A model generated the notes under the pieces. That model searched no databases. It was not told where the DNA came from and saw nothing but the letters and a program-made list of their open reading frames with translations. Positions 22,478-63,499 of a DNA stretch of 64,000 nt are shown here, piece by piece. Positions within the stretch are counted from its first letter, which is position 1, and every line of letters starts with the position of its first letter. The stretch lies in contig DAIDIF010000023.1 in NCBI GenBank assembly GCA_027451805.1, positions 268 to 64,267 on the forward strand, given 5' to 3'. This DNA comes from Acidobacteriota bacterium (GTDB lineage: Bacteria > Acidobacteriota > Terriglobia > Terriglobales > SCQP01). Position numbers and translations under genes: made by a program.

Positions 22478-23302
22478 CTAGTGCGATTGGAACAGATACA
22501 GGGAGAAGAAAAGAAAGACCCAGACAATGTCGACGAAGTGCCAGTAGTACTCGGCGGCCTTCAGCGACATGTGGTACTGCTGGTTGTACTCGCCCTTCTC
22601 CATGCGCCAGTACACCAGCGCCAGCATGAGCAAACCGACGGTGACGTGGGCGCCGTGGAAGCCGGTCATGAGGAAGTAGGCGGAACTGTAGGCGCCGGTG
22701 GTCAGGGTGAAGCCGAGGACGCCATTGAGGAAGCCCCACTCGAAGCCCTGCATGCCGAGGAAGGTGATGCCCATCGCGATGGTGAGCAACATCCAGTTCT
22801 TGGCGGCGGTCTTCTTGCCGTGCAGCAGCGCGTGCACCGCCCAATTCAGGGTGAAGCTGGAGCCAACCAGGATCAGGGTCGCGATCGCCGGCAGCGTGGT
22901 CTCCAGCGTGGGCATGCCGGCGGGCGGCCAGTGCGCGCTGGTGAAGCGGCTGTAGTAGAGGTACTCGAAGTAGGAGACGAAGATCATCCCCTCGGAGGCG
23001 AGGAAGAAGAAAAAGCCGCGGGTCAGGTCCTTGTTGGTCTGGACCTGGTCCATGTGGCGGCGCTCCACGGCGATGGTATTGGCCCAGCCGGAGGCGGCAA
23101 CCAGGGTGTAGAGGACGGCGGCGGCGAGCAGCACGCCGGCCAGCGGCACGCCCAGGTAGACCAGAAACACCAGGAAGACCACGGCGCCCATGCCGCCGGC
23201 GAGCAGGATGGGCCAGAAGCTGGGCGCGGGCGTGTGCGCGCTGGGATCGGCGTGCATGCCGGCGTGTGCGGCGGCGGGCGAAGCGAGGCTGGCGTGTTCC
23301 AT
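22478..23302 (-). CDS. coxC: Haem-copper oxidase subunit III
   Basis: Seven-TM protein ending ..GFHGAHVTVGLLML..YWHFVDIVWVFLFFSLY, the canonical subunit III signature. Confidence 0.9.
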   Translation of the reverse strand: MEHASLASPAAAHAGMHADPSAHTPAPSFWPILLAGGMGAVVFLVFLVYLGVPLAGVLLAAAVLYTLVAASGWANTIAVERRHMDQVQTNKDLTRGFFFFLASEGMIFVSYFEYLYYSRFTSAHWPPAGMPTLETTLPAIATLILVGSSFTLNWAVHALLHGKKTAAKNWMLLTIAMGITFLGMQGFEWGFLNGVLGFTLTTGAYSSAYFLMTGFHGAHVTVGLLMLALVYWRMEKGEYNQQYHMSLKAAEYYWHFVDIVWVFLFFSLYLFQSH

Positions 23303-23482
23303 CTACTTGATCCAGTGCGGAAAGGCGAACTTGGTGTCCTCGGGATAGATCCAGCCGCGGCGCGCGGCCCAAGGCGTCCAGAGGGCGCAGGCAAGCGCCA
23401 GGAACGCCAGCAGCCAGCCGAGGCGGCGGTTGCGGCGGCGGATCCCGGGCGAAAGCTGCTTCAACTGTGCCGTGCGGTCCAT
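23303..23482 (-). CDS. Unannotated 59-aa single-TM ORF inside the oxidase operon
   Basis: Below the 60-aa cut-off of the track. My translation is MDRTAQLKQLSPGIRRRNRRLGWLLAFLALACALWTPWAARRGWIYPEDTKFAFPHWIK. Its ATG lies 5 nt after the ctaG stop, and its TAG directly abuts the coxC ATG. Codons are GC3-rich like the neighbours. Confidence 0.55.
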   Translation of the reverse strand: MDRTAQLKQLSPGIRRRNRRLGWLLAFLALACALWTPWAARRGWIYPEDTKFAFPHWIK

Positions 23483-23486
23483 GGGG

Positions 23487-24050
23487 CTATTGTCCTCCGG
23501 CGCCGAAGGCGGGGGGCGCGCCCGGGGCCAGCGGCTCGAGGGTGTACATGACGCTGACGCGCTTGATCCGCGGGTCGAGGCCCTGGTTGAGCTGATAGAT
23601 GACCGGCAGGGTCTTGGTCTCGTGCGGCTTCATGGTCTGATCGCTGAAGCAGAAGCACTGAATCAGGGCCAGGTGGGTGGCGGCGTCGGCGGGATAGATG
23701 TCGTGGATGGCGCGAAAGCGCACGGTGTGGTCGCTGGTGTTGGTAAAGGTGAAGTTGTTCTGGCTGCGCTGGTCGAGGTGCACGGTTTGCAGCATGTCGC
23801 CGGGCTGCAGCGTCACCGCCAAGCCGGGGGCGGTGATGGTGCTGAAGCTGATGTTGATGGCGCGATGCAGGTCCACCGGGCCGGTGGAGGCGGCCAGCTT
23901 CTCGTCCGGCGGCACGTAGAGCCCGTAATGGGCGCAGAAGACGCGGAACAGGGGCACGTTGATGAAGGCGAAGCCCACCATGCCCAGCGCGATGAGCAAC
24001 AGCTTCCAGCCGTGGCGCTTGCGGCGTTCAAACCCTGGAACGATTGCCAT
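23487..24050 (-). CDS. ctaG: Cytochrome c oxidase assembly protein CtaG/Cox11 (CuB insertion)
   Basis: N-terminal TM then VPLFRVFCAHYGL (Cox11 CFCF-type region ..LIQCFCFSDQ..). Confidence 0.85.
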   Translation of the reverse strand: MAIVPGFERRKRHGWKLLLIALGMVGFAFINVPLFRVFCAHYGLYVPPDEKLAASTGPVDLHRAINISFSTITAPGLAVTLQPGDMLQTVHLDQRSQNNFTFTNTSDHTVRFRAIHDIYPADAATHLALIQCFCFSDQTMKPHETKTLPVIYQLNQGLDPRIKRVSVMYTLEPLAPGAPPAFGAGGQ

Positions 24051-24057
24051 GATGCTG

Positions 24058-25653
24058 CTAGTCGACCTCCGGAATCTCGGCGAAGTTGTAGGCGGGCGGC
24101 GGGCTCGAGGTGGCCCACTCCAGATGCAGCTCGATGTCGTTGGCCTGCCAGGGATCGTCCCCCGCCGTCTTGGGCTCCCGCAGCGCCTTGATGATGCTGT
24201 AGGTGAACAGGATGCCGGCGAGGAGCATGAAGATGAAGCCCTCGGAGATGAACTGGTTGAGCGGGCGGAATTCGATGCGGTAGTTGGCGACGCGCCGCGC
24301 CATGCCCTCGATGCCGAGCAGGTGCATGGGCATGAAGACCCAGTTCATGCCGATGAAGAAGAGCCAGAACACCCAGCTGCCGAGCTTTTCGCTGAGCATG
24401 CGGCCCGTAATCTTGGGAAACCAGTAGTAGGTGCCGGCGAACAGCGTCATCACCGAGCCGCCGACCAGCACATAGTGGAAGTGGGCGACGACGAAGTAGG
24501 TGTTGTGCACCAGGATGTCGAAGGGCACGACCGCGAGCATGAGGCCGCTGAGGCCGCCGAGCACGAAGGTGAAGATGAAACCCAGGGCAAACTTCATGGC
24601 GGTGGTGAAGCGGATCACGCCGCCCCACACCGAGGCCAGCCAGGAGTAGATCTTCACGCCAGTCGGCACCGAGATGAACATGCTGGCCATCGAGAAGAAG
24701 ACGCGCGCGCTGGCGGAGATGCCGGCGGTGAACATGTGGTGCGCCCAGACCATGAAGCCGATGACGCCGATCGACCAGATCGCCATCACCATGCCCTTAT
24801 AGCCGAACAGCTTCTTGCGGGCCATGGAGGGGATGATGTGGGAGATCATGCCGAAACCCGGCAGGATCATGATGTAGACCTCGGGATGGCCGAAGAACCA
24901 GAACAGGTGCTGGTAGAGAAGCGGGTCACCGCCGAGCGCGGGGCGATAAAAGCCGGTGTTGAGCCAGCGGTCGCTGAGGAGCATGAAGAGCGCGCCGGAG
25001 AGGACGGGCACGGCGAGCACCAGCATCCAGGCGGTGACCACCCAGCTCCAGACGAACAAAGGCAGCTTCATCCAGTTCATGCCCGGGGCGCGCATGTCAA
25101 TCACGGTGACCAGGAAGTTGATGGCGCCCATGATCGAGCTGATGCCGAGCAGGATGACAGCCAGGATCCAGAGGTCCTCGCCATGGCCGGCGGAGAACTG
25201 GGCGGTGCTCAGCGGCGGGTAGCTCCACCAGCCGTCGGCGGCGGCGCCGCCCACCACGAAGAAGCTGCCGTAGAGCATCATCGCGGCGGGGATGAGCAGC
25301 CAGAAGGCGAAGGCGTTGAGCTTGGGGAACGCCATGTCGCGGGCCCCGATCATCAGCGGCACCAGGTAGTTGCCGAAGCCCGCGAACGCCGTCATCAGGG
25401 TCAGGAAGATCATGATGGTGGCGTGCATCGTCATGAGCTGGTTGTACAGCGCGGGCGAGACGATGTGCCAGTCTGGGTTATAGAGGTTGAGCCGGATCAG
25501 GCCGGCGAGGGAACCGCCCAGCCAGCCGTTGATCAGGGCAAAAACGATGTACATGATACCGATCTTCTTGTGATCGGTGGTGGTGATCCAGTCGAGGACG
25601 CCGTGGTACTGGCGGGGCTGGGTCACCCCGGCGGTGGCTACGTGGGTGCTCAT
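24058..25653 (-). CDS. coxA: Haem-copper oxidase subunit I
   Basis: 531 aa with [15 protein letters not shown] and VAHFHYV signatures. Confidence 0.95.
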
Positions 25654-26459
25654 GCTTTTCCTCGCGCCTTGCGGGCGGCCGTCGGCGCCACGGGTAAAGC
25701 GGCGGGCGGGGCGGCGGGTAGGGAGGCCGACTGCGTACGGTGTTTCGCCAGCCAGGCCTGGAACTGGTCGTTCGGCACCACCTGCACGTCAATCAGCATC
25801 TGCGCGTGGTTGACGCCGCACAATTGCGTGCACTGGCCCTTGTAGTAACCGGGCTTGGCCTTAAACCAAAGGTTGGTGATGCGGCCGGGCAGGGCGTCCA
25901 TCTGAATGCCCAGGCCGGGGACGTAGAAACCGTGGATCACGTCCACGCTGGTGAGATCGAGATCCACCACCGCGTTGGCGGGAACCACCAGGGTGTCGTT
26001 GGAGATATCAATGCCGTACTGCGGGTATTTGTATTCCCAGAAGAACTGGTGGCCAACCACGTCAATGGTGAGCGCGGGATTATTGCCGCCGAATTCCATG
26101 AACGTCAGGGTGGGGTAGGAGTGCAGGGCGACGGTGATGACGACGATCAGGGGAATGATGGTCCACAGGAACTCGAGCGGGTTGTTTTCGTGGAAGGTGG
26201 CGGGCTTGCGGCCGTCGCCCTTGTCGCGGAACTTGATGATGACGTAGGCCAGCAGGATATAAGCGATGAGGATGAAGGGGATGACCCAGACGAAGGCGCG
26301 CAGGCTCGCGGCGGCGGCGCGGATGGCGACGATGCCGCCCGGCTGGCTGAAGGCGTTGCGCACCGGCGCGGCGCTGCCCTTGGCGGCCGCCTGGGCCATG
26401 GCCTGGGCCATGGACGTTCCGGCCTGCTGGGCGTAACTAGACAGCAGCGCCAAACTCAT
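25650..26459 (-). CDS. coxB: Haem-copper oxidase subunit II (CuA), without a fused cytochrome c domain
   Basis: Two TM helices and a cupredoxin domain with DVIHGFYVP and [12 protein letters not shown] CuA ligands. There is no CxxCH motif. Confidence 0.9.
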
Positions 26460-27475
26460 TGCGAACCTCCGTTTGCGGTTCCCTGCCCCGCCGACAGCGC
26501 CTGCACGAGCTGCTGTTCATAGGCGTAGAGGGAGCCGAGTTGGGGGACGGTCAGGGTCCCCTGGCCGGGCATCATATGGCCGGGCAGGCCGTGCAGCACG
26601 ACGTGGGAAAAGCTGGCGAAGTCGCTGGGCGAGGAGAGGATGAGCGGCTGGAGAAAGCTCTGGGCGCGGACCTCGACGTAGGGGTCGGAGTCGACCATCT
26701 CCACCGGGATGCCGCCCTGGCCGAGCAGGCCGTGGCAGGTTTGGCAATGGAGCTGGTAGAGGGCCTTGCCCTGGGCGAGATCGGGCGCCGCCTTACCGGG
26801 CAGCGCGGCGGGCGGGGACGGCGGCGGCACTTGGGCGGCGGCGGCGGCCGCCTCGGAGGCAAAGATCCGCATCGCCACCGCGATCGGAATGCGGGGGCCG
26901 GTGGGCACCGGCTGGAGCGGCGGTAGCGCGGCCGGGGCCTCGGAGGCGGGACTCTCGATCGCTTCCAACTGCGCTGGGGTGTTGTGCTGCAGCGCGCTCT
27001 TGGGGATGAAGTTCTGGCGGATGTAGTGGATCACCGCCATGCGTTCCTCGGGTGTGAGCGCCACGAAGCTGGGCATGGAGGTGCCCGGCGAGCCGTTGGT
27101 CACCGTGTGGTACATGGTGAGCACCGAGGTTCCGAAACGGAAGACGCCGGTGTGGTAGTTGCGCGGCGGCGGGTTGAGGCCAGCGGCGCGCGGGCCGTTG
27201 CCGTAGCCGTCGATGCCGTGGCAGGGGGCGCAGTTGGCCACGAACACCTGCTGGCCCTCGGCCAGCAGCTTGGGCGTGGGCTTGAGCAGCGGGCGCAGGT
27301 CCACCACGGTGGCGGCGCCGGGCGGCGGCGGCTTGTGAAAGTCGAACCGGGCCTGAAAGAGCGCCCGGCCGTATTCCCCACCGAAGGCCGAGTAGATCAG
27401 GAAACCGGCCGCCATCACCACCAGAGCGAAGCCGATCAGCGACTTGAGCGAGGGCTGGGCCGGCGGCTGGCTCAC
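26456..27475 (-). CDS. Membrane-anchored dihaem cytochrome c (likely electron link between ACIII and the oxidase)
   Basis: N-terminal TM helix and two CxxCH motifs (CAPCHG, CQTCHG). Overlaps both neighbours by 4 nt. Confidence 0.8.
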   Translation of the reverse strand: MSQPPAQPSLKSLIGFALVVMAAGFLIYSAFGGEYGRALFQARFDFHKPPPPGAATVVDLRPLLKPTPKLLAEGQQVFVANCAPCHGIDGYGNGPRAAGLNPPPRNYHTGVFRFGTSVLTMYHTVTNGSPGTSMPSFVALTPEERMAVIHYIRQNFIPKSALQHNTPAQLEAIESPASEAPAALPPLQPVPTGPRIPIAVAMRIFASEAAAAAAQVPPPSPPAALPGKAAPDLAQGKALYQLHCQTCHGLLGQGGIPVEMVDSDPYVEVRAQSFLQPLILSSPSDFASFSHVVLHGLPGHMMPGQGTLTVPQLGSLYAYEQQLVQALSAGQGTANGGSQ

Positions 27476-28692
27476 AGGTACCTCCCCGCAACCGAATTCA
27501 GAAACTTGGGATCGCCCACCGGCACCATCGGATGGCGGCTGAGGTAGCGGGTCGCGAGCAGCCCGAAGATGCCGAGGAAACCCAGGAAGACGCCGAGCTC
27601 GACCCAGTTCGGCATGTAGAAGCTGGGATGGATGACGGGCATGATCAGCCAGTAGCAGTCAAACCACTCCGCCACCAGGATCAGGCTCGACATGGCGATG
27701 AGCACTTTCTCGTTGGTGCGCACCTTCTGGTTCATCAGGATGGTGAAGGGCAGCACCCACTTGGCGATCAGCAGGGCGAGGAAGAGGTAGCCCCAGCCGT
27801 GGACGATGCGCTGGTGAAAATAGATGGTCTCCTCGCGGTAGTTGGCGTACCAGATCAGCATGTACTGGGCGAAGCCGATGTAGACCATGAAGATGCTGAA
27901 GGCGTGCACGATGCGCGCCAAGTCCACGTAGTGGTAATCCTTCACCGCGCCGCCGAACATGTTGTGGCGGCGTAGCAGCACGGTGAACAGCAGCACCAGC
28001 GCCAAGCTGGCCTGGAGGAGGCCGGCGAAGCCGTAGACGCCCCACATGGTGGTGTCCCAGTGGGGCTCGAGCGACATTACCCAGTCCACGAAACACCAGG
28101 TGAAGCTATAGCCGAAAAAGATCAGAAACCCGGCGGCGACGCGTCCGCGGATGGTGGGCTTCTTGCCGAAGGTGGGGCGGGGCGCCAGCACCGCGGGGTG
28201 GGTGTCCTGATAGGTGGAGTTGCGGAGGAACCAGTAGCCAAACAGGCACCAGACGCCGAGCGCCAGCAGCGTGCGCGCGCTGTAGAAGGGCATGGCGAAG
28301 TAGGCGCGCTTGCCGGCGGTGATGAAGCCGGAGTAGCCGGCGACGGCCCAGGGATAAATGTGGGGGACGCCGAGCAGCAGCACGATGGCGAGCAGGAAGG
28401 CGGCCGGCAAATAGTTGGCGGCGGCTTCGGGCAGGCGGCGGAAGACCACCGTCCAGGTGGCGCTGGTGATGTACTCCAGCGCGACCAGAAAGACGCCGCC
28501 CAGGCCGAGCACCAGGAAGAACAGGTAGTTGGTCAGGAAACTGTACCAGGCGCGCTGGGGGCTGACCGCGAGCGCGATCAGAAACACCATCACGCCGATG
28601 GCGGTGGACGCCATCAGCCAAGTGCGCACGCGGCGGGGGAAGACCGCGGGGCCCGGTTGGGGAATTTCGACGACTTGCTGGTGTGCGTCCAT
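27472..28692 (-). CDS. actF: Alternative Complex III subunit ActF (polytopic membrane subunit)
   Basis: 406-aa multi-TM protein in the canonical position after actE. Assigned by operon order and NrfD-related membrane character. Confidence 0.75.
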   Translation of the reverse strand: MDAHQQVVEIPQPGPAVFPRRVRTWLMASTAIGVMVFLIALAVSPQRAWYSFLTNYLFFLVLGLGGVFLVALEYITSATWTVVFRRLPEAAANYLPAAFLLAIVLLLGVPHIYPWAVAGYSGFITAGKRAYFAMPFYSARTLLALGVWCLFGYWFLRNSTYQDTHPAVLAPRPTFGKKPTIRGRVAAGFLIFFGYSFTWCFVDWVMSLEPHWDTTMWGVYGFAGLLQASLALVLLFTVLLRRHNMFGGAVKDYHYVDLARIVHAFSIFMVYIGFAQYMLIWYANYREETIYFHQRIVHGWGYLFLALLIAKWVLPFTILMNQKVRTNEKVLIAMSSLILVAEWFDCYWLIMPVIHPSFYMPNWVELGVFLGFLGIFGLLATRYLSRHPMVPVGDPKFLNSVAGRYL

Positions 28693-28694
28693 GG

Positions 28695-29378
28695 TTAGTG
28701 AGGAATGGCCTCCGAGCCGGGGATGGGGCCGTTGGGGCCCTCGGCGGGGGGCAGATCGTGGGAGAAGTCCATCCCCGCGCGTTGCGCGCGCGCCATGTCG
28801 GAGGGCGAGGGGTTGGCGGCAAGTTGCAGCACGCGCACGTAATGGATGATGGCCCAGCGCTGCGCCGAGTCGAGTTCGGTCTGGTAGGGAGGCATGTTGC
28901 CCTGGCCCTGGGTGACGATGGTGAAGATGCGTCCGTCGCTGAACTGGAGCGGGGCGCCGGCGATCAGCGGCGGCGGCTGCGTCATCTTGGGCACGATGTA
29001 GCCCAATCCATTGGCGAGCGGGCCATGGCAGACGATGCAGTAGTTGTCAAACAACTGCCGGCCCTTGGCCAGCACCGCGGGCGTGATCGGCAGCGGATCC
29101 ACGATGCTGTCCACGCCGCTGACGTCGGAGGGCTGGGGAAAGGGAGTGTAGTTGACGGGCACGGTGTGCGCGGGCGGCACGCGCATGGCGGGCAGGCTGG
29201 CATCGACGTGGTCGGTGCCCAGGGGACGCACGCTCTGCTGCACGTACATGTCGGGCTGGTACTCGATCTGGGTCGTGGTCGTGGTGCCGGGGCCGGCGCA
29301 GCCGAACAGCAGCAGGCCCAGCGCGGCGGCGACGATCCAGACGAGACAGCCGGGCAGCATCGGGGTGACTTTAGGCAA
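28695..29378 (-). CDS. actE: Alternative Complex III subunit ActE (monohaem lipoprotein cytochrome c)
   Basis: Lipobox LLLFGCAG and a single CIVCHG haem motif. Confidence 0.8.
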   Translation of the reverse strand: MPKVTPMLPGCLVWIVAAALGLLLFGCAGPGTTTTTQIEYQPDMYVQQSVRPLGTDHVDASLPAMRVPPAHTVPVNYTPFPQPSDVSGVDSIVDPLPITPAVLAKGRQLFDNYCIVCHGPLANGLGYIVPKMTQPPPLIAGAPLQFSDGRIFTIVTQGQGNMPPYQTELDSAQRWAIIHYVRVLQLAANPSPSDMARAQRAGMDFSHDLPPAEGPNGPIPGSEAIPH

Positions 29379-29892
29379 GATCGCGCACCTCCACGGCGCC
29401 GAGCTCCTTCAGCATCGCCTGCACGTTGCCGCTCTCGTAGGGGCGGACCGGCACGTAGAGGCCGAAGTGGTCATTGGTGAGCTCCCGATCGAGCGGGACG
29501 AAGTTGGGCGCCGGCCGCAGCCGGGCGGCGATAAACACGGCGGTGAAGGTGGAGATACCGGCGATGAGAATGCCGCTCTCGAACGTGATGGGCATATAGG
29601 CGGGCACCGAGATGAAGGGCTTGCCGGCGATGTTGAGCGGCCAAGCCCAGGCCATGGTCCAGGCTTCGAAGGTGAACCCGAGCGTGGCGCCGACAAAAAA
29701 CATGGTTTTGGTGACGCGCGGCATCCAACTCATCTTGAGGCCGAGCGCCTTGTCCATGCCGTGGACGGCGTAGGGGGTATAGGCGTCCAGCCCGCGGTAG
29801 CCTTTCTCGCGCACCGCCGCGATCGCCCGCAGCAGGTGCTGGGGATCGAGGAACAGGGCCAGCACGGCCGGCGGCCGGTACTTGTCAGACAT
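29371..29892 (-). CDS. actD: Alternative Complex III subunit ActD (DUF3341)
   Basis: 173 aa, beginning ..[24 protein letters not shown].., with two TM helices. Has 8-nt overlaps with actC and actE. Confidence 0.75.
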
Positions 29893-31306
29893 GGCTCTCC
29901 TCCAGCGGCGCGGCTTCGGCCACCTGATGCTTGAGCACGCTCTTGACCTCCGCGATCGAGATCACCGGGACGAAGCGCGAGAACACCAGGAAAAGGGTGA
30001 AGAACAGGCCCAGCGAACCGACGAAGGTGCCCACGTCATAGATGGTGGGGGCGTAGTAGCGCCAGTTCGAGGGCATATAGTCCTGCGAGAGCGAGCTGAT
30101 GATGATGACGTACCGCTCAAACCACATGCCGATGTTGATGATGATGCTCATGATGAACAGCACCACCAGATTGCGCCGCGCCCGCCGAAACCAGAAGATG
30201 AGCGGTGCGATGCAGTTGCAGAACACCGTCAGCCAACCCGCCCAGGCATAGGGGCCGAAGAAGCGCAGCCAGATGTAGATGTGGGTCTCGAACGGGTTCT
30301 CGCTGTACCAGGCCATGAAGATCTCGACCAGGTAGGCGTAGGAGACCATCATCGAGGTGGCGAGGATGATCTTCGCCATCAGCTCCATGTGGTCAATGGT
30401 GATGTAGTGCTCCAGCGAGAAGGCCTTGCGCATGATCGTGACCACGGTGATCACCATGGCAAAACCGCTGAAGATCGCGCCGGCGACGAAGTAGGGCGGG
30501 AAGATGGTGTCGTGCCAGCCGGGCATGGAGGAGACGGCGAAGTCGCTGGAGACGACGCTGTGCACGGAGAGCACCAGCGGCGTGCAGATGGCGGCGAACA
30601 AGCCGTAGGCGGCCTCGTAATGATGCCAGTCGCGCGCGGTGCCCTTCCAGCGCTGCGCAACCGCCCCGTAGACCTTGCGCGCGAACTTGCCGGGGTGCAT
30701 GTCGCGCACCGTGGCTAGGTCGGGGATCATGCCCAGGTACCAGAACAGCAGCGACGTGGTGGCGTAGGTCGAAACCGCGAACACGTCCCAGATCAGCGGC
30801 GAACGGAAGTTGACCCAGAGGTGGCGGCTATTGGGATAGGGGATGAGCCAGTAGGCGATCAGGGTGCGGCCGATGTGGATCAGCGGGAAAATGCCGGCGC
30901 AGATCACGGCGAAGATGGTCATCGCCTCGGCGGAGCGATTGATGGCGGTGCGCCAGCGCTGGCGGAAGAGATAGAGGATGGCGGAGATGAGGGTGCCGGC
31001 GTGGGCGATACCGACCCAGAACACGAAGTCGGTGATATAGGTGCCCCACATCACCGGCCGTTCCAACCCGAGAATGCCGAGGCCGACGTGGAGCTGGACC
31101 CAGATGACATAGACCCCGATGTTGAGCATCCCCAGCGCCACCAGCAGTCCGCCCCACCACCAGGCGTTGGGGCGGCGGAAGATGGCGGCGGTGAGCTCGC
31201 GGTTGACCTGGGTGAGGTTGATATCGGCGCGGTAGATGGGCGGCTCCTCCGCCACGACGGGGCCCGGGCCGAGCTGCGCCGGATGCAGGTTCACGTCGTC
31301 GCTCAT
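29885..31306 (-). CDS. actC: Alternative Complex III subunit ActC (NrfD/PsrC-like quinol-interacting membrane subunit)
   Basis: 473-aa polytopic NrfD-like protein immediately after actB. Confidence 0.8.
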
Positions 31307-34300
31307 GCCTTTGCCTCCGGGTCGCCGGCGCCGAGGTTGCGCACCTTGGTGAGGTAGACGATGCTGGGCTGGAAATTCAGCTCCTCCAACACCTTGTAGC
31401 CGCGCGCGGAGCGCTGCCGCATCATCACCGAATTCTTGTCATCCATATTGCCGAAGTAGATCGCCTGCGCCGGGCAGGTCTGCTGGCAGGCGGTGCGGAT
31501 GTCGCCGTCGCGCACCGGCAGGCCGCGCTCCTTGGCGCGATAGTGGGCGGCATGGATGCGCTGCACGCAGAAGGTGCACTTTTCCATGATGCCGCGCGAG
31601 CGGACGGTCACCAGCGGGTTGAGCGCCAACTCCAGCGGCGCCGCACGGACGGTGCTGTAGTTGTAGAAGTTGAAGCGGCGGACCTTGTAGATGCAGTTGT
31701 TGGAGCAGAAGCGGGTGCCGACACAGCGGTTGTAGACCTGCACGTTGAGGCCCTCGGCGTCGGTGACGGTGGCGATCACCGGGCAGACGCTCTCGCAGCC
31801 GGCGTTGGCGCACTGCTGGCAGAGCATGGGCAACTGGGTGACGTCGGGGTTGTCCTCGGGTCCGCTGAAGTAGCGGTCGATGCGGATCCAGGCCATTTCG
31901 CGGCCGCGCCAGACCTGATCCTTGCCTACCACCGGAACGTTGTTCTCGGCGTAGCAGGCTACTGCGCAGGCGTTGCAGCCGATGCAGGCGTTGAGATCGA
32001 TGGTCATGCCCCAGTGGTAGGTGGGGTAGGTGTGCTCGCTGGGGCCGCCGTTGTCCCACAAGCTGGCGGGCGGCTCCTGCGGCGGGTTTCCGGCGCTGGG
32101 GTTGGCCTGGATCTGGACCAGCGTGGTGTCGCGCACGATGGTCGCGGCGCGGCCCTGGCTCTGCTCGGGGGTGATGGTATCGCTGTTGAAGCTGGCGTAA
32201 TTGTTGCCCTGGGGCGAAGCGATAAGATAGCGCCCGCCCACCTTGCGTAGCGTCACCTTGCTGCCGGAGGGAACGATGCCCTGGCCCCCGGGGGCGAGTT
32301 GGGCGAGGCGGTAGGCGTTGGCGCCGACATCGGTGCCCACCTCGCCGACGGAGGCGCGGCCGTAGCCGACGTAAATGGCGGCTACGCCGGGGTGGACGCC
32401 GATCTGGACGTAGACCGGCGCGCGCAGGGTGGCGTTGCCCACCGTGGCTTCGGCCACGGCGTAGGTTTCGTCGCTATCGGGCTCCAGGCCGAGTTGCTTG
32501 GCGGTGCTGGGGGCGATGGTGAAGAAATTGTCCCAGCAACTCTTCCACACCGGGTCGGGGATTTCCAGCAGAAACGCATTGTTGCCCCACCAGCCGTCGC
32601 CCAGCATGGGGGGCACGGCGAGCGAGAGCTCGAGTTCGCCCGCAGCGGCGGGCGCGGACGCGGCGGACGGCAAGGCGGCCAGCGCAGCCGTCTTGAAGGC
32701 GCGCGCGGCGCCGGGCTGCCGCCGCTTGGGGTTGGGATCGAACACGCCCGCCTGGAGCGCGCCGGTCCAGAAGTCGTCGAAACTGGCGGCCGGGTTGTTC
32801 TTGGGGTAGATCTGCGTCTGCCAATGCTCCCGCAGATAGCCGTAGAAGGTGTAGGCGACCGCCGGCGGCTGCGGCGGGGTCGGGGGCGCGGCGGCCGCCG
32901 CTGCGGCCGCGGCGCCGGCCGCCGGAGCGGCCGATAACGCCGGCGTGGCCGCGGCCCCCGGCGCCGGCGGCAACACCGGCGGAGCCGGGGGCGGAGGCGC
33001 GGTGAATTTCGCCTTACCCGCGGGGGTGAGGTAGGCAAGCTGGATCAGGGCGTCCTCGAAACTGCGGCCGCCAAAGAGCGGCTCGATGGTGGGCTGCACC
33101 AGGCTGTACAGGCCGGCCTGCGGCTCGGCGTCGCCCCAGCTCTCCATCCCGTGCAGCGCCGGCAGCGCGAGGTTGCCGAGCTGCGCGGTTTCATCCAGCC
33201 GCTCCGCCAGCACCACCACGTGGGGAACCTTGGCCAGCGCGGGCAGGAAGCCGGCCGCCTCGGGCAGGCTGTAGGCCGGGTTGGTGCCGTAGACGAACAG
33301 CGTCTCCACCTTGCCCGCTTGCATGTCCTGAATCAGTTGCAGCATGGCAGCGTTGCTGCCCTGCGCCTGCAGGCTGGGACTGCCGGTACCGTCAATCGTC
33401 GCGCCTTCATTCTCCAGCGCCGAGTTCAGGAAGGCGACGGCGAGCTCGAGCATGACCTGGTCCTCGGTGGCGCCGGCCATGCCGCCACCGCAGACAATGC
33501 TCTTGCCGCGCTGCTGCCACAACTCGCCCGCGAGCCGGCCGAGGGCGCCGGCGGGCAATCCCGTCTGATGCTCGACCGCGGCCGGCTCGAAGGGCGCGAG
33601 CGCCTTGGCCACGGTGGCATCGCCGGCGAACCTCGACACCTTGTTCACCAGCACGAGCTGGTGGGCCAACGCCAGCGCCGCCGGCAGCAACTGCGACGGC
33701 GGCAGCAAATAGCGGGTGTCGGCGCTGAGGCCGACCAGACTCATCGCCGGCTCGAACGCCACCACCCGCGACATGGTGTTGCCGCGCAGTTTGCGCTGGT
33801 GGCCGAAGCCCCAGGAGTACTCCTGGCGCGAAATGCCGGAGCCGATGGGGTCGGCGCCGAAGGTCACGATCATCTCGGCGCGGTCGAAGAAGTAGCGCGG
33901 CGTCGCGCCGGGCCGCGCAGGCGCGCCGTAGGCGGCGGCCTGGCCGGCGACGACCGCATCCGGATTGATCGAGTCGTAGACGACGTGGCGCAGCGGGTAG
34001 ACGGAGAGGAAATCGGCCAGGAGCGCGGTGCGCGCGGGTCCGTGGATGGTGCCGGTGAGCAGCACGCCACGGCTGCCGGCGGCGCCCAGCCAGGCGCCGA
34101 CCTGCTTGTCGGCCGCGTCCCAGGTGATGGGGTTGAGCGCGCGCAGGATGGGATGCTGATTGTTGCGGAAGGGCGTACCCGTCTTCCAAACGTTGGTCGG
34201 AAAGTGCAGTCTGTACTTGGGCTGGGGCGCGTTGCCCACCAGCCCGGCCAAGCTGTGCACGCGATCGAGCGCCACCGGCTGGCGCAGGCGGTCGGGATCG

Positions 34301-34728
34301 TAGAGGTTCAGCAGCGCCGCCTGGCCGATGGGGCAGGCGGTGCCGTGATTCAGGGGATGCAGCGGATTGCCCTCGACCTTGGTCGGCCGGCCCTCGTGCG
34401 TGGTGAGTACGATGCCGCATCCGGCGGCGCACTCGCGGCAGGTGGAGGCGTAGTAGTTCGCGATGCCAGGCGTGATGTCGGGCGGCTGCTGGGCGTAGGG
34501 GATGATCTGCTGGACCGGCTTGCGCGAGCAGGCGGTGGCGGCCACCGCGAGCGCCGCGGTCGACCACTTCATGAAGTCACGGCGCCCGAAGCGGAGGCCC
34601 TCTTTGCCACTCTCCACCGCGTCGAAATGTTCCTGCGGCTTGGACTTGAACTCCTCCTGCCGCAGTTTCTCGACCGCCGGCGATCCCTGCAGTTCCGGCA
34701 GCGTCGTCCAGTAGCGTGGTTTGCTCAT
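31303..34728 (-). CDS. actB: Alternative Complex III subunit ActB (molybdopterin-oxidoreductase-like B1 fused to 4Fe-4S ferredoxin-like B2), 1141 aa
   Basis: Tat signal [20 protein letters not shown], a molybdopterin-like N-terminal part and C-terminal Cys clusters ([43 protein letters not shown]). Confidence 0.9.
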
Positions 34729-34738
34729 AATCTGAAGC

Positions 34739-35311
34739 TCAGTTGTGGCACACGTCGCAGTCCTGGGGCGCGTTCGCCGGACGGTCGTGGAAGGTGGCCG
34801 GATCGCGGTGGTACTTGTCGTTGGGCCCGGGCAGGTAATTGTCGTTGCGGTGGCAGTTCAGGCACTCGGCCATCGTCCACTGCTTCACCTGGACGATCTG
34901 ATCCATGTCCTGCACCTGGCCGTGGCAGGTCTGGCAGGCGATACCGGCGGCGATGTGCCAGCGGTGCTGGAAGTAGACGAACTGCGGCAATTGATAAACG
35001 CGGATGAACTTGATGGGCTTGAGGGCGGCGTAGTCGGCGGCGATCTGCTTGATGGGCGCGGTGCCGCTCGCCACCACGGCATGGCATCCCATGCAGACGT
35101 TCAGCGGCGGAATCGGCGCGTAGGCGTCGCGGTCCACGCCGGCGTGGCAGTACTCGCACGGAATATGGTTAATGCCGGCGTGCAGCTTGTGGCTGAAGGG
35201 CACCGGCTGGGCGGGCGAATAGCCCACGTTCTCTCCCATGCCGAGCAGCTTCCAGGCTCCAAACCCCAGCAACGCCAGCACAATGAGCGTCAGCCGCCAA
35301 TGTTCTCTCAT
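34739..35311 (-). CDS. actA: Alternative Complex III subunit ActA (pentahaem cytochrome c)
   Basis: N-terminal TM helix and five CxxCH motifs (CEYCH, CMGCH, CQTCH, CLNCH, CDVCH). Confidence 0.9.
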   Translation of the reverse strand: MREHWRLTLIVLALLGFGAWKLLGMGENVGYSPAQPVPFSHKLHAGINHIPCEYCHAGVDRDAYAPIPPLNVCMGCHAVVASGTAPIKQIAADYAALKPIKFIRVYQLPQFVYFQHRWHIAAGIACQTCHGQVQDMDQIVQVKQWTMAECLNCHRNDNYLPGPNDKYHRDPATFHDRPANAPQDCDVCHN

Positions 35312-36129
35312 GTCGCGAACTCGCGGTTAAACCCTTCCCTGGGCGCGACCACGCGCCACTCGCGGGCGATCGCGCTGGCGCGCGTGTCGCCCCATCCGAC
35401 TGAACCATTCGAGGGCGGGAACCAGTCCGCGTCCGCAAAACGAGGAACCAGACAAGGATATAGAAGGAAAGAGGTGCCTACTGCGTGAACCGATAAATCC
35501 GAAGATGAAACCGGCGGCGCCGTTCCCCTGAGCTCCCCCCAATGGCTGTCAGCAATTTTCCAAGGATAGGGATTTTGACTGGCGAGGTCAAGCGCGATTT
35601 GATGCCGCCGGCAGGAACTCCGGCGCCAGAATATCGCGCGGCCGCGCGGTCTGTTTCTTGCCAGGCCCTCCGCCGCCGCTGGCCGGCGCCCCGGGCCGCT
35701 GCCTGCAGGCAAGAGGCGCCCGCGTCTGGGTTGCGACGCCATTTAATGACTGGCACGGGCCCCAGCGCGGCTGCCGGTCCCGGCTGTAACGGCGCCGGGA
35801 CACGTGCGCCGCGCGTCCCGCTTATGCCCACGCCGGCTTTGCCCGCAGGCAAACGGCGCCGCCCCGGCGATTGGCGTTGGTCCCGAGTCGCGCCAGCCTG
35901 ACCGGAGCGAGACCGCAGAGACAGGGGGGCTGCGAAGTGGGGAAGAGCGGCTCGCTGCCGGGGTCCAACCCTCTGGGGACATTTCCTGATTTGTGATGGT
36001 CGTACGGGCGGGGCGTGATCCACAACACGACAATTGCGGGTTTTTCCCCATGCCTTGTGGAATTTAACGCAATGTTCCTGGCGTTTATGAAGGCGAGGGC
36101 AATTGCAACTGCGTGATTTTCCAAGGGGT

Positions 36130-36145
36130 TCGTGATTGCCATCAC
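36130..36145. promoter_or_regulatory. CRP-type palindromic box CGTGA-N6-TCACA upstream of the cupredoxin gene
   Basis: CGTGATTGCCATCACA matches the TGTGA-N6-TCACA core at 9 of 10 positions. It lies 71-86 bp upstream of the ATG at 36216. A Crp/Fnr-family regulator is encoded in the same window (9532-10251). Confidence 0.35.
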
Positions 36146-36215
36146 AGTTGGCCAACCGCGTGCATTTCGAAGGATGAGTTCCGCAATTCATTTTCACCAT
36201 TCGACTGGAGGACCC

Positions 36216-36839
36216 ATGAAAAGCTCGTTCCTGTTCGCTGCAGTTCTGATGACCGGCATGGCCGCAGTAGCCCAAAGCGGCGCGATCAGCGGCCAAGTCT
36301 CGGGGATTCCCCGGGCAAAGGCGCTGCCGGGCGCCTTCCCGCCGCCGCCCACGCCGGCGGTTGTCTATGCCGTACCGCTGTCGGGCAAGGCGCTGACCCC
36401 CATCGCCGACAAGACCTATACGGTGGACCAGAAGTGGACCCAGTTCGTGCCGGGCGTGTCCGTGGTCCCGGTGGGCGCGACGGTCGAATTCACGAACGAC
36501 GACACAGTGAAGCACGACGTCATGTGGAAAGCGATCGGCAACGACACGGCGCTGGGCCGCAACTTGGGCGTCCACAATCCCGACCAGACGGTGTCGTATC
36601 GTTTCACGCGCGCCGGCGCGATCCATCTACAGTGCTTGGTGCACCCGAGCATGAGCGCTTGGCTCTATGTGGCGCCGACGGGATATTCCACCGTCACCAG
36701 CACGAGCGGCAAATACAGCCTATCGAACCTGCCCGACGGCCGCTATCGCGTGGTGGTTTGGCATCCCGGCGTGGCGACGCAGTCGCAAATCGTGTCGGTC
36801 ACCGGCCATGCCAAGCTGAATTTCAACCTGAAGAAGTAA
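36216..36839 (+). CDS. Periplasmic type-1 copper (cupredoxin) protein fused to a carboxypeptidase-regulatory-like domain
   Basis: Trimmed to MKSSFLFAAVLMTGMAAVAQS (ATG 36216, GGAGGA 6 nt upstream). Cupredoxin ligand pattern: TVEFTNDDTVKHDV .. HLQCLVHPSM (H, C-x2-H-x2-M). C-terminal ..GKYSLSNLPDGRYRVVVWHPG.. beta-sandwich. Confidence 0.7.
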   Translation: MKSSFLFAAVLMTGMAAVAQSGAISGQVSGIPRAKALPGAFPPPPTPAVVYAVPLSGKALTPIADKTYTVDQKWTQFVPGVSVVPVGATVEFTNDDTVKHDVMWKAIGNDTALGRNLGVHNPDQTVSYRFTRAGAIHLQCLVHPSMSAWLYVAPTGYSTVTSTSGKYSLSNLPDGRYRVVVWHPGVATQSQIVSVTGHAKLNFNLKK

Positions 36840-37111
36840 GCTCCACGTCTGGCGCGGTTGCGCCCGGCCGGGGATTGCATGTTTGGATACCCGGCCGGCG
36901 CGCCGGCAGCCGCAAGCGCCAGCGTATCGCTCCAGCATCAACTCGGCGGAATGGCACCGGGCGCAGATGCGCCACGTCGGAATGCTGCCCGGTCACCGCC
37001 TGCCTGGGTTAGTCATCGCATCGGCGGAGCGGCGGCCGCAGCTGGCAGCCGGTCGCACGCGGACCCGGGCGGGTATCGCCGCTCCCTGCCCACTCGCGCG
37101 AGAATTAAAAT

Positions 37112-38467
37112 ATGAATCGCAACAAGACTCTTCTTCTAGCCGCAGCCAGCGCATTGCTCGGCCTCCTGACAGGGGCGCCATCGCGGGCTTGGGCGGTCCC
37201 GAGTTTTGCCCGCCAGACCGGCTTGCCGTGCAGCCGCTGCCACATCACCTTCCCCGAGTTGACGGAGTTCGGCCGCGAATTCAAGCTCAACGGCTATACC
37301 TTGAGCGGTCCGGATACCAAGAAAATCTACACGCCGGGCAAGGGCAACGCCTCGGGCGTCTGGATCAACGCCAACTTGCCGATCTCGGTCATGTTCCAGA
37401 TCGCCGACACGCTGATGAACAAAACCGCGCCCGGGACGCAGTCCGGCAACGTGGAATTCCCGCAGCAGCTCAGCCTCTTCATGGCGGGCGAGATCGCGAC
37501 GCATCTCGGCACCTTCATGCAGGCCACCTACACCGCCGCCAGCGATCGTCTGTCGCTGGACAACACCGATATCCGGTACACCAATTTCGCCACCTGGGCG
37601 GGCAAGCAACTGGTCTACGGCGTGGACATGAACAACAACCCCACCGTCGAGGACCTCTGGAATGACACGCCTGCCTGGGGCTGGCCCTGGGCCTCGCCCG
37701 ATTCCACGCCCACCCCGATGGCCGCGCCGTTGGTGGACGGCGGCTTGGCCCAGGACGTGGGCGGCGTGGGGGCCTACGCCATGTGGAACCACCACTGGTA
37801 CGGCGACTTCGCGCTCTACCGCTCGATGCACCTGGGCGGTCCGCAGCCGCCGACCGGGGCGAATTACGGGATCAATATCGCCGGAGCGGCGCCGTACTGG
37901 CGCGGCGCCTACCAAACCAGCTGGGGCGGAGGGAAAAACTACCTCGAGGCCGGCACCTTCGGCATGTGGGTCAACAGCTTCCCCAACGCCGTGGCGGGCG
38001 CGGAAGACCACTATACCGACAACGCCGCCGACCTGCAGTATGACCGGCATTTCGGCGCCAATGAGCTGACCACGCACGTCTCCTTCATTGACGAGCGGTC
38101 GCAGCTCAACGCGGCCTACGCCGCCAACCTCGCCGCGCAAGCCGCCCACTCGCTGAAGACAGTGTCGGCGAACGGCATCTTTCACTTCGGCAACCGCTAC
38201 AGCCTGGGCGCCGGCCCGTTTGCCACCTGGGGCACCAGCGACCCGCTGCTCTATGCCGCCGCGCCGGTCAGCGGCAGCGCGAACGGCAGCCCCAACTCCA
38301 GCGGCTATCTGCTCCAGGCCGGATTCTGGCCGGCGCAAAATGTCGAGCTGTCGGCGGCCTACCAGGGCTATCTGAAGTTCAACGGCGCCGGCGCCAACTA
38401 CGACGGTGCGGGCCGCAGCGCCTCGCAGAACAACACCGTCTATCTGAACGTCTGGCTGATGTTCTAG
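37112..38467 (+). CDS. Cyc2-like fused monohaem cytochrome c / outer-membrane beta-barrel porin (451 aa)
   Basis: Signal peptide ..GAPSRAWA|VP. A single CxxCH sits near the mature N-terminus (VPSFARQTGLPCSRCH). The remaining ~400 aa are rich in Gly/Tyr/Trp/Asn/Ala with alternating-strand character and end ..VYLNVWLMF (C-terminal Phe, an OMP beta-signal). Confidence 0.6.
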   Translation: MNRNKTLLLAAASALLGLLTGAPSRAWAVPSFARQTGLPCSRCHITFPELTEFGREFKLNGYTLSGPDTKKIYTPGKGNASGVWINANLPISVMFQIADTLMNKTAPGTQSGNVEFPQQLSLFMAGEIATHLGTFMQATYTAASDRLSLDNTDIRYTNFATWAGKQLVYGVDMNNNPTVEDLWNDTPAWGWPWASPDSTPTPMAAPLVDGGLAQDVGGVGAYAMWNHHWYGDFALYRSMHLGGPQPPTGANYGINIAGAAPYWRGAYQTSWGGGKNYLEAGTFGMWVNSFPNAVAGAEDHYTDNAADLQYDRHFGANELTTHVSFIDERSQLNAAYAANLAAQAAHSLKTVSANGIFHFGNRYSLGAGPFATWGTSDPLLYAAAPVSGSANGSPNSSGYLLQAGFWPAQNVELSAAYQGYLKFNGAGANYDGAGRSASQNNTVYLNVWLMF

Positions 38468-38485: not shown

Positions 38486-38854
38486 TTACCAGCGCGGTTC
38501 GCGGGGCTGACGGACGTGGCCGCGGTAGTCGTCGCGGTTGCCGCCGCCACCGCCGCCGCGCGGGCCGCCGGCGCCCGGACCGCGGCCAAAGCCGCCGGCC
38601 GGACGCTCGGGACGCGGGCGGGCTTCGTTCACGTTGAGCGTGCGGCCGCCGAGACTGCTGCCGTTGACGCCGGAGATGGCGGACTCCGCCTCCTCATCGT
38701 TGGGCATTTCCACGAACGCGAAGCCGCGGGAGCGGCCGGTCTCGCGGTCCATCATGATGCTCACACGGGCGACCGAACCGTAATTCGCAAACACCGAGCG
38801 CAGCTCGTCTTCGCCGGTGCCAAATGCCAAGTTCCCCACGAAAATACTCTTCAA
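38486..38854 (-). CDS. RRM-type RNA-binding protein with Gly/Arg-rich tail
   Basis: TTG start with GGAGAA upstream. RNP motifs IFVGNL and RGFAFVEM. Confidence 0.9.
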   Translation of the reverse strand: MKSIFVGNLAFGTGEDELRSVFANYGSVARVSIMMDRETGRSRGFAFVEMPNDEEAESAISGVNGSSLGGRTLNVNEARPRPERPAGGFGRGPGAGGPRGGGGGGNRDDYRGHVRQPREPRW

Positions 38855-59487: not shown

Positions 59488-60849
59488 TCACTGCGGGGCG
59501 CCGGGCAAACGGGCGCTCATGAGCTTCTTGCTCAGGAACGGCGAGCCGGCCACGGACTTGAACATTTTGCGCATCTGCACATACTGCTTCAGCACCTGGT
59601 TGACTTCCTGCACGCTGACGCCCGAGCCGCGGGCGATACGCTTGCGGCGGCTGCCGTTGATGATCTGGTGGTGCTGGCGCTCCTGCTCGGTCATGGAGCA
59701 GATGATGGCTTCCGTACGGGTGATCTGGCCTTCGTCCACGGAGGCGGAGGCCTTGTGCAACTGCTGGAAGGGGCCGACGCGGGGCAGCATCTTGACCAGG
59801 TTCTCGAGCGAGCCCAGCTTCTTCACCTGGCGCAACTGGTCGCGGAAGTCGGCCAGGGTGAAGCTGTCGCTGCGCATCTTGCGCTCCAGCTCCTGCGCCT
59901 GCTTCTGGTCGACCGCCTGTTCGGCGCGCTCGATCAGGCTGAGGATGTCGCCCATGCCGAGGATGCGGCCGGCGATGCGGTCGGGATGGAAGACCTCGAG
60001 CCCGTCGAGGCGCTCGCTGGTGCCCATGAACTTGATCGGCTGGCCGGTGACGGCGCGGATGGAGAGCGCGGCGCCGCCGCGGCTGTCGCCATCCATTTTG
60101 GTCAGCACCACGCCGGTGAGGGCCAGCTCGCGGTGGAAGGCGGAGGCGGAGCGGACCGCATCCTGGCCGGTCATGGCGTCGGCGACGAAGAGGATCTCCT
60201 GGGGCGCGAGCAGCTCTTTGAGCTGCCGCATCTCGTCCATCAGGGCGGCATCCACGTGCAGGCGGCCGGCGGTGTCCACAATCAGGATGTCGCAGCCCTG
60301 GCGGACGGCCTCGCGGCGCGCGCCACGGGCCAACTCGAGCACCGCCTCAGTGGCGTCGGCGGCCTCGCCGGCGAACAGCGGCGTGGGAACCTGCTCGGCG
60401 AGCAGCGCCAACTGCTGGCGGGCGGCGGGGCGATAGACGTCCACCGAGACCAGCAGCGGGCGATGGCCCTGCTGCTTGAGCCAGCGCGCCAGCTTGGCGC
60501 TGGTGGTGGTCTTGCCCGAGCCCTGCAGGCCGGCCATGAGGATGGCGGCGGGCGGGCGGGCGGATTTGAGGTTGAGGCGGGCCTCGCCGCCCAGCACCTG
60601 CAGCAGCTCGTCACGCAGGATCTTGACCACCTGCTCGGCCGGCGACAGCGACTGCAGCACCTCCTGGCCCAAGGCGCGCTGGCGGATGGCGGCGACCAAA
60701 TCCTCGGCCACCTGCTGGCTGACGTCAGCCTCGAGCAGCGCCAGGCGGATCTCCGCCAGCGGCTCGGCGATGTTGGCTTCGCTCAGCCGGCCTTCGCCGC
60801 GCAGGGTCTTGAACACCCGCTGCAGCTTATCGGTAAGGGTCTCGAACAT
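59488..60849 (-). CDS. ffh: Signal recognition particle protein Ffh
   Basis: MFETLTDKLQRVFKTLRG.., GLQGSGKTTT, DTAGRL, and a Met-rich M domain. Confidence 0.95.
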   Translation of the reverse strand: MFETLTDKLQRVFKTLRGEGRLSEANIAEPLAEIRLALLEADVSQQVAEDLVAAIRQRALGQEVLQSLSPAEQVVKILRDELLQVLGGEARLNLKSARPPAAILMAGLQGSGKTTTSAKLARWLKQQGHRPLLVSVDVYRPAARQQLALLAEQVPTPLFAGEAADATEAVLELARGARREAVRQGCDILIVDTAGRLHVDAALMDEMRQLKELLAPQEILFVADAMTGQDAVRSASAFHRELALTGVVLTKMDGDSRGGAALSIRAVTGQPIKFMGTSERLDGLEVFHPDRIAGRILGMGDILSLIERAEQAVDQKQAQELERKMRSDSFTLADFRDQLRQVKKLGSLENLVKMLPRVGPFQQLHKASASVDEGQITRTEAIICSMTEQERQHHQIINGSRRKRIARGSGVSVQEVNQVLKQYVQMRKMFKSVAGSPFLSKKLMSARLPGAPQ

Positions 60850-60991
60850 GACGCTGTACGTTGATCTTGCCTATTTTAGCAGCAGCGGGCGATCGAGCCG
60901 GGAAGGGAGGGGGGCCAGTTGCGCGGCGGCGCGGGGTGCGGTATCGTTACTTGCGCGCAGGTTCCACCCTCGGCGCATCCCCTTGGAGGCA

Positions 60992-63499
<2,508 letters not shown>

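Follow-up and report, generated by a model that had tools for sequence, protein, structure and literature searches.

The closest described counterparts of the gene pair considered here are the Cyc2 proteins, such as Cyc2 of Acidithiobacillus ferrooxidans, Cyc2PV-1 of Mariprofundus and Cyt572 of Leptospirillum, which share a signal peptide, a single N-terminal CXXCH motif, a family signature, a length of about 450 amino acids (aa), a barrel of 16 strands similar to that of OprO/OprP, and an aromatic residue at the C-terminus (PMC8406198). The pair lies in a stretch of 64,000 nt, hereafter the window, from an Acidobacteriota genome (Terriglobales; SCQP01; assembly GCA_027451805.1, contig DAIDIF010000023.1, positions 268–64,267), and all positions below are in window numbering. 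It encodes a type-1 copper protein followed by a 451-aa protein that carries the same set of features and that, judged by its motifs and predicted fold, is very probably a fused monohaem cytochrome–porin of the Cyc2 family; the two-gene module is probably a conduit for electrons that links dissolved iron to the respiratory chain. It has been reported by Keffer et al. (2021; PMC8406198) that Cyc2 proteins are recognised by a signal peptide, a single CXXCH, a length of at least 365 aa, the motif AXPXFAR[Q/K][T/Y] with FAR five residues before CXXCH, which the authors consider exclusive to Cyc2, then PXL four residues past CXXCH, and a 16-strand porin resembling OprO/OprP (PMC8406198). The criteria applied here are those of McAllister 2020 and Keffer 2021.

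Two further systems are comparable. In Acidithiobacillus, the rus operon (cyc2-cyc1-cup-coxBACD-rus) encodes a Cyc2 of the outer membrane together with a periplasmic cupredoxin and a haem-copper oxidase, a combination that is also present at a single locus here. MtrAB, MtoAB and PioAB likewise move electrons across the outer membrane via a cytochrome in a barrel, which in their case is a separate decahaem protein threaded through 26 strands (PMC8406198); a complex of the MtrB/PioB/MtoB type was rejected for the window, where the protein has 16 predicted strands and one fused haem. Compared with characterised Cyc2, the window protein differs in its acidobacterial host and in its kind of partner, which is a cupredoxin–CarboxypepD_reg fusion or, in related loci, a bc-type complex and not cyc1, while barrel conservation in this clade (52–56% mean column identity) is far above that described for Cyc2 overall. 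The features of the pair are as follows.

37112–38467, plus strand: cytochrome–porin gene, 451 aa, from the translated open reading frame (ORF)
37112–37195, plus strand: predicted signal peptide, aa 1–28, ending ...SRAWA before VPS, by sequence inspection
37196–37309, plus strand: N-terminal monohaem cytochrome c domain, aa 29–66, from the translation and the published Cyc2 consensus
37382–38467, plus strand: predicted 16-strand outer-membrane beta-barrel, about aa 91–451, ending ...VWLMF, from AlphaFold2 (AF2) and Foldseek
36216–36839, plus strand: type-1 copper protein gene, 207 aa, from the translated ORF, ATG at 36216
36840–37111, plus strand: spacer between the cupredoxin gene and the cytochrome–porin gene, 272 bp

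Both ORFs stand where the preliminary description of this DNA had placed them, with the same 272-bp gap. A GGAGG ribosome-binding site lies 6 nt ahead of the cupredoxin ATG at 36216, and both frames show the coding signature of this genome, with a G+C content of 0.78–0.88 at third codon positions (GC3) against about 0.50 at second positions (GC2). Co-transcription of the two genes is likely, because the spacer holds no T-tract terminator; it also holds no terminator-like site and no Rfam match.

The 451-aa protein begins MNRNKTLLLAAASALLGLLTGAPSRAWA, and its mature chain, after the predicted cleavage between ...SRAWA and V, starts VPSFARQTGLPCSRCHITFPELT; the protein ends ...YLNVWLMF. By inspection, the signal peptide has a basic n-region, a hydrophobic core and the cleavage site AWA-V at residues 26–29, and the AF2 model places an N-terminal helix at residues 3–21. 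The sole CXXCH is C40-S-R-C-H44 (nt 37229–37243), which starts at the 12th residue past the predicted cleavage, and the haem site reads A-V-P-S-F-A-R-Q-T, then G-L-P, C-S-R-C-H, I-T-F and P-E-L, with the AXPXFAR[Q/K][T/Y] and PXL motifs in register; the length of 451 aa compares with the lower limit of 365 aa. Exactly one CXXCH, at this position, is found in 239 of 239 full-length relatives. S31, R34, Q35, C40, C43, H44, E49 and L50 are invariant across 118 aligned sequences, in which P48 is conserved at 90% or more; H240 is invariant within YRS.H.GGPQP; H131, H146, H228, H322 and H358, which like H240 lie in the barrel and its loops, are invariant or nearly so; and all 120 close homologues end in F, Y or W. 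Because the short cytochrome domain has no conserved Met or His after the CXXCH, the sixth haem ligand may come from a loop of the barrel.

Sequence databases of families and structures were silent on the protein: there was no significant Pfam match (best E 0.3, to an unrelated family), no NCBIfam match and no match in a PDB sequence search, and neither Pfam nor NCBIfam holds a Cyc2 model. AF2 with the 118-sequence alignment gave a small helical N-terminal domain followed by 16 long strands, with a predicted local distance difference test score (pLDDT) of 85.1 and a predicted template modelling score (pTM) of 0.82; with a 25-sequence alignment the model was moderate (pLDDT 68). Foldseek against the PDB returned outer-membrane porins only, and the top query TM-score of 0.49 was reached by OprO (4rjw) and OprP (2o4v), which have been reported as templates for Cyc2PV-1 (PMC8406198). 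The preliminary description had proposed a Cyc2-like fused monohaem cytochrome–porin on the strength of a PxFARxxGxxCxxCH-type N-terminus, a signal peptide, a CxxCH 12 residues into the mature chain and a C-terminal Phe. All of these are present in the translation, the N-terminal motif agrees with the published family-defining one, and the identification is borne out by the motifs in register, by the conservation of the CxxCH, which occurs once in each full-length relative, and by a predicted barrel of 16 strands (16–18 had been anticipated) with a small N-terminal domain.

More than 4,400 matches to the 451-aa protein were found among clusters at 90% identity, and the few that are named are 'cytochrome C' from Terriglobia/Acidobacteriota; with so many homologues, the frame is not a chance ORF. 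An exhaustive phmmer search returned 3,359 clusters at 50% identity (E ≤ 1e-3). In tblastn searches against plasmids, full-length homologues annotated 'cytochrome C' (30–38% identity, 92–95% coverage, E 1e-33 to 1e-68) were found in Ralstonia, Caballeronia, Paraburkholderia, Ideonella and Acidiphilium, and these share the N-terminal motif and a C-terminal ...KFNGA..NYDG.GRNA.DNNT.Y...WF.F block with the window protein. They adjoin HiPIP (high-potential iron–sulfur protein) or c-type cytochrome genes, so that the Burkholderiales and Acidiphilium pairs, which are proteobacterial and often carried on megaplasmids, differ from the window pair in having one of these, not a cupredoxin, as the soluble partner. 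Burkholderia, Ralstonia and Xanthomonas have been named as genera with many Cyc2 homologues (PMC8406198). A sequence-network study placed Acidobacteria homologues beside Leptospirillum Cyt572, and a published analysis puts them in Cyc2 cluster 3. A search seeded with the Ideonella homologue returned only Burkholderiales proteins that are unnamed or called 'cytochrome C', none of them characterised. One plasmid match (L083, from A. ferrooxidans YQ-N3 'plasmid unnamed1') has the same scores, identity and coverage as the match to the Acidiphilium cryptum JF-5 plasmid NC_009469 (33.3% identity, E 1e-50 in both); this 'Acidithiobacillus' plasmid may in fact be an element of Acidiphilium, or else a contaminant, and its Cyc2-like gene reads FAAQT, not FARQT.

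The 207-aa partner has a predicted Sec signal peptide at about aa 1–20, a long Pro-rich N-terminal linker and the motifs VKHD and CLVHPSM, and two domains can be distinguished in it.

About aa 59–148 of the 207-aa protein, plus strand: amicyanin-like cupredoxin domain, ligands H100, C140, H143 and M146
aa 154–205 of the 207-aa protein, plus strand: CarboxypepD_reg beta-sandwich, Pfam E 2e-9

A PDB sequence search with the 207-aa protein returned amicyanins and a NirK cupredoxin domain, with C-x2-H-x2-M aligned. Residues 59–148 align across the whole amicyanin fold, H100 pairing with the first amicyanin copper His and C140-x2-H143-x2-M146 with the C-T-P-H-P-F-M loop; the type-1 copper ligand set of His, Cys, His and Met is present and aligned with the amicyanin ligands, and it is kept in some 35 ORFs that neighbour the gene at related loci. 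Orthologues match PF00127 (Copper-bind), a model that does not hit the window protein itself at E ≤ 1. Its match to the NCBIfam amicyanin model (TIGR02657, E 6e-5) reaches 23.4 bits against an equivalog cut-off of 110.2, so membership of that equivalog was rejected and the likeness is one of loop geometry only. The ligand spacing His ... Cys-x2-His-x2-Met is shared with amicyanin, but the Pro-rich linker and the CarboxypepD_reg domain set the window protein apart, and there is no methylamine dehydrogenase in the neighbourhood. As read from its sequence, the upstream protein is an amicyanin-like cupredoxin, neither amicyanin nor rusticyanin. The fusion of a type-1 copper domain to a beta-sandwich that had been noted earlier therefore stands, with the sandwich now named; the cupredoxin half is weak by profile and known mainly by its ligand pattern and the amicyanin alignment.

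In a distribution scan with one genome per species, at least 574 genomes were found to carry a relative of the cytochrome–porin. The best 80 of these are almost all Acidobacteriota, with hosts from the Acidobacteriaceae, Terriglobales, Bryobacterales, Candidatus Acidiferrales and Candidatus Sulfotelmatobacter, and with the cultured Acidipila rosea DSM 103428 among them. For 81 loci, the ORFs lying up to 3.5 kb from the gene were clustered and representatives annotated; cupredoxins were recounted by requiring C-x2-H-x2-M, as neighbour cluster 0 had mixed true cupredoxins with an unrelated family, and clusters c4, c7, c17 and c24 were discarded as alternative-frame shadows of cytochrome b and Rieske genes. 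A recognisable redox partner stands within this distance in 73 of the 81 loci. In the most frequent arrangement (47/81) the neighbours are a Rieske protein and/or a cytochrome b that carries 4–5 fused haem c domains (880–1,030 aa), usually in the order Cyc2-like, Rieske, cytochrome b–c and with a median gap to the Rieske gene of 11 bp, or an overlap, which looks like one operon; examples are L033 9995–14537 (Acidipila rosea DSM 103428), L017 9992–14972, L043 and L021. An adjacent co-oriented cupredoxin with C-x2-H-x2-M and all four ligands is found in 28 loci and a monohaem cytochrome c in 10. In five loci (L004, L006, L008 at 4388–7331, L009 and L011), genes for an ActA-like pentahaem protein and for ActB- and ActC-like proteins follow directly downstream; the products are 29–51% identical to subunits of the alternative complex III (ACIII) encoded in the window, no ActD or ActE was detected there, and these genes give the impression of a minimal ACIII-like module that shares the operon.

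The four closest relatives (L002, 87% identity; L003, 75%; L001, 69%; L077, 67%) have the cupredoxin gene followed by the Cyc2-like gene and nothing else, with gaps of 140–210 bp. The pairing of cupredoxin and Cyc2-like gene is conserved. Both tests of linkage that had been suggested beforehand, namely a recurring cupredoxin neighbour (28 loci, including four of the four closest relatives) and a recurring association with redox genes, thus turned out in favour of the pair. In addition, three metagenome-assembled genomes (MAGs) have two paralogues each (L003/L004 in ZJ1.bin67, L032/L068 in FK5.bin103 and L044/L075 in Centralia_MAG_209), which differ in their partners, for example a cupredoxin only in one and an ActA-like protein or Rieske plus cytochrome b–c in the other; the window genome may therefore hold more Cyc2-like copies.

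Some neighbourhoods have further components. A GltD-like iron–sulfur (FeS) flavoprotein gene (Fer4_20, Pyr_redox_2 and two Fer4 domains) sits between the cupredoxin, or an ORF in the cupredoxin position, and the Rieske/cytochrome b genes in L069 (12093–14051), L019, L028, L030 and L042. The arrangement resembles the Rieske/cytochrome b complexes with a link to NAD(P) in anammox bacteria, which hints at a link of the electron route to NAD(P)H in these five cases. A Crp/Fnr-type regulator with a cyclic-nucleotide (cNMP)-binding domain and a helix–turn–helix lies just upstream in L021, L023, L026 and L071, and sigma-54-type response regulators lie near the gene in L003 and L019; such neighbours are a hint that redox state or oxygen may control the module.

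The window pair is divergent from a respiratory gene cluster, and the two regions concerned are listed below.

22478–35311, minus strand: ACIII plus caa3-type oxidase cluster, 11 respiratory genes, from Pfam assignments
35312–36215, between divergent genes: intergenic region from actA to the cupredoxin gene, 904 bp, presumably holding both promoters

The cluster contains genes for ActA, ActB, ActC, ActD, ActE, ActF, a dihaem cytochrome c, CoxB, CoxA, CtaG and CoxC. Beyond it, also on the minus strand, come genes for a LysR regulator, a hypothetical protein and a solute-binding protein. The ACIII subunit set of pentahaem ActA, Mo-pterin-like/FeS ActB, NrfD-like ActC, ActD, monohaem ActE and ActF is present, with Pfam matches for ActA to ActE and five CXXCH motifs in ActA; ActF has no Pfam match and is a paralogue of ActC at 22% identity. 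The cluster of the preliminary description is thus real, although its count of 13 genes was approximate. In ActB (31303–34728, minus strand; 1,141 aa), the molybdopterin-like part is separated from the FeS part by a long insert of low complexity, rich in Ala and Pro. The intergenic region contains no GC3-supported ORF, no Rfam match and a single weak sigma-70-like site on the minus strand that is not above shuffled expectation; promoter, terminator and Rfam scans of 35.0–39.0 kb gave nothing above background. No Rieske or cytochrome b gene is found in the window. Converging on the 3' end of the Cyc2-like gene is a gene for a glycine-rich RNA-binding protein of the RNA recognition motif (RRM) type (38486–38854, minus strand; RGFAFVEM), and the same neighbour, 91% identical, is carried by L002.

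The proposed mechanism is as follows. Electrons would cross the outer membrane one at a time through the module: some small redox-active solute, most likely Fe2+ by analogy with the family, would enter the pore and exchange an electron with the haem, which would sit at the periplasmic mouth of the barrel, and the periplasmic cupredoxin would re-oxidise this haem. The cupredoxin could then hand the electron to the inner-membrane chain, which here would be the dihaem cytochrome c and the caa3 oxidase of the adjacent cluster; ACIII would give a connection at the level of quinone; the ACIII–caa3 cluster is in this sense a possible inner-membrane partner. The CarboxypepD_reg beta-sandwich may be a docking module, which is speculation. 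The wire is probably reversible. Net inward flow, that is, Fe(II) oxidation for supplementary energy or detoxification in a heterotroph, is judged to be the most likely direction, with middling confidence. It is favoured by the caa3 oxidase with its own dihaem cytochrome c next door; in addition, a single haem and a narrow pore have been argued to suit dissolved Fe2+ (PMC8406198).

Several observations weigh against inward iron oxidation, and direction, which the preliminary description had assumed to be inward, is the weakest step of the argument. The link to biochemically characterised Cyc2 is indirect, through the proteobacterial homologues, the named genera and the published placements. 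The adjacency of the ACIII/oxidase cluster is not conserved: among the four closest relatives the upstream 10-kb flank is retained only in L001 and L003, and neither has ACIII or Cox genes in these 10 kb, so the adjacency was rejected as evidence of function. The earlier view that the window repeats the wiring of the rus operon leaned on this adjacency and does not hold; the usual partner elsewhere is the Rieske/cytochrome b complex, and the window pair, unlike rus, is a separate two-gene unit divergent from the ACIII–caa3 cluster, with no cyc1 adjacent and an amicyanin-like cupredoxin. A conserved single unit of the rus type was rejected on the same grounds. As to the hosts, Acidipila rosea and many of the soil Terriglobia are not known as iron oxidisers. 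Isolates of the Acidobacteriaceae, the family of Acidipila rosea, have been reported as reducers of Fe(III) in acidic sediments. The frequent pairing of the gene with a quinol-oxidising bc-type complex, seen in more than half of the loci, points the same way, because a heterotroph would run such a complex forward, towards the outer membrane. Lastly, the authors of the Cyc2 study consider function outside Cluster 1 uncertain (PMC8406198).

The strongest rival is flow in the outward direction, from quinol through ACIII or the Rieske/cytochrome b–multihaem c complex to the cupredoxin and on to the Cyc2-like haem–porin, with dissolved Fe(III) or another soluble oxidant as the acceptor and the whole serving as an auxiliary electron sink at low oxygen; we regard it as a serious alternative, though less probable than inward flow. 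It is favoured by the 47 loci with Rieske and/or cytochrome b–c genes alongside and by the five more with ActA/B/C-like modules. The haem c tail of the cytochrome b resembles a periplasmic wire that runs outward from a quinol oxidase; the Cyc2 of A. ferrooxidans has been proposed to be the final Fe3+ reductase of a chain that starts at bc1 and passes through CycA and rusticyanin/Cyc1; and Acidiphilium cryptum JF-5 and A. multivorum, both of them Fe(III) reducers, carry homologues on plasmids. However, the only biochemistry available for the family is Fe(II) oxidation (PMC8406198), Fe(III) is barely soluble above a soil pH of about 3.5 and its organic complexes may not fit a narrow porin, and the window's own clade has a cupredoxin only, without the bc-type operon.

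Less probable, and in our view unlikely, is a role outside respiration, either in iron or redox stress at the cell surface (oxidation of toxic Fe2+, conditioning of iron for uptake, redox sensing) or with another substrate such as Mn, Cu or quinone-like humics. Such a role would agree with the very wide spread of the family, which comprises the clusters and species genomes counted above and extends to ordinary soil bacteria and to plant-associated Ralstonia and Paraburkholderia, far beyond the taxa known to respire iron, and with the MAGs whose two paralogues have different partners; Keffer et al. also allow additional functions (PMC8406198). Nevertheless, the tight and recurrent operon link to energy-conserving quinol oxidoreductases exceeds what detoxification or sensing would need, and no iron-uptake regulator or transporter is consistently adjacent. 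An ordinary porin with an incidental or unused CXXCH beside an unrelated copper protein, suggested by the absence of Pfam, NCBIfam and PDB sequence matches and by a barrel like that of general porins, is effectively refuted by the conservation pattern, in which the CXXCH and its flanks are the most conserved part of the protein (118 sequences; 239 relatives), and by a redox neighbourhood that recurs in nearly all of the 81 loci.

Beyond the passage of electrons between dissolved iron and the respiratory chain proposed for the window pair, a wider interpretation may be put forward tentatively. The Cyc2-type haem–porin of Acidobacteriota may be the outer-membrane end of an undescribed modular, possibly bidirectional trans-envelope wire, not a stand-alone iron oxidase, with the window pair as its minimal version. 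In other loci this wire might be hard-wired to Rieske and a cytochrome b with a tail of 4–5 haem c domains, to ACIII-like ActABC, sometimes to the GltD-like NAD(P)H module, and to amicyanin-like cupredoxins. The preliminary description regarded the arrangement as undescribed for Acidobacteriota, and this applies to the specific gene arrangement only, since metagenome surveys of the FeGenie type already list Cyc2 in Acidobacteriota MAGs. No description of an acidobacterial Cyc2–cupredoxin or Cyc2–bc operon was found in the literature, the coverage of which was incomplete, so that the negative result carries little weight. What is most novel is that, across the phylum, Cyc2-like genes are linked in operons to bc-type or ACIII-like complexes and to cupredoxins, a link that lies mostly outside the window.

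Few bacteria are as abundant in soil as the Acidobacteriota, and surveys count their Cyc2 matches as 'iron oxidation' without a functional test. With the conserved partners described here, such a call from a marker gene becomes a hypothesis whose direction can be tested. Acidipila rosea DSM 103428, as a cultured and sequenced carrier, makes the role of Cyc2 in bacteria that are not iron oxidisers accessible to experiment. If flow were outward, metagenomic counts of 'iron oxidisers' based on Cyc2 would need revision; if the wider interpretation were true, an abundant soil phylum would have a widespread, possibly bidirectional route of extracellular iron redox exchange.

Two other genes of the window may be mentioned. 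A 2,687-aa protein with GH94 supersandwich, catalytic and glucoamylase-like domains is encoded at 1234–9297 on the minus strand; our guess is a cyclic beta-1,2-glucan synthase or a phosphorylase-type enzyme. At 60476–63499 on the plus strand lies the gene for a 1,007-aa H+-translocating pyrophosphatase, whose Pfam domain begins only at residue 249, so that either the protein has an N-terminal extension of about 250 aa or its start has been called too far upstream.

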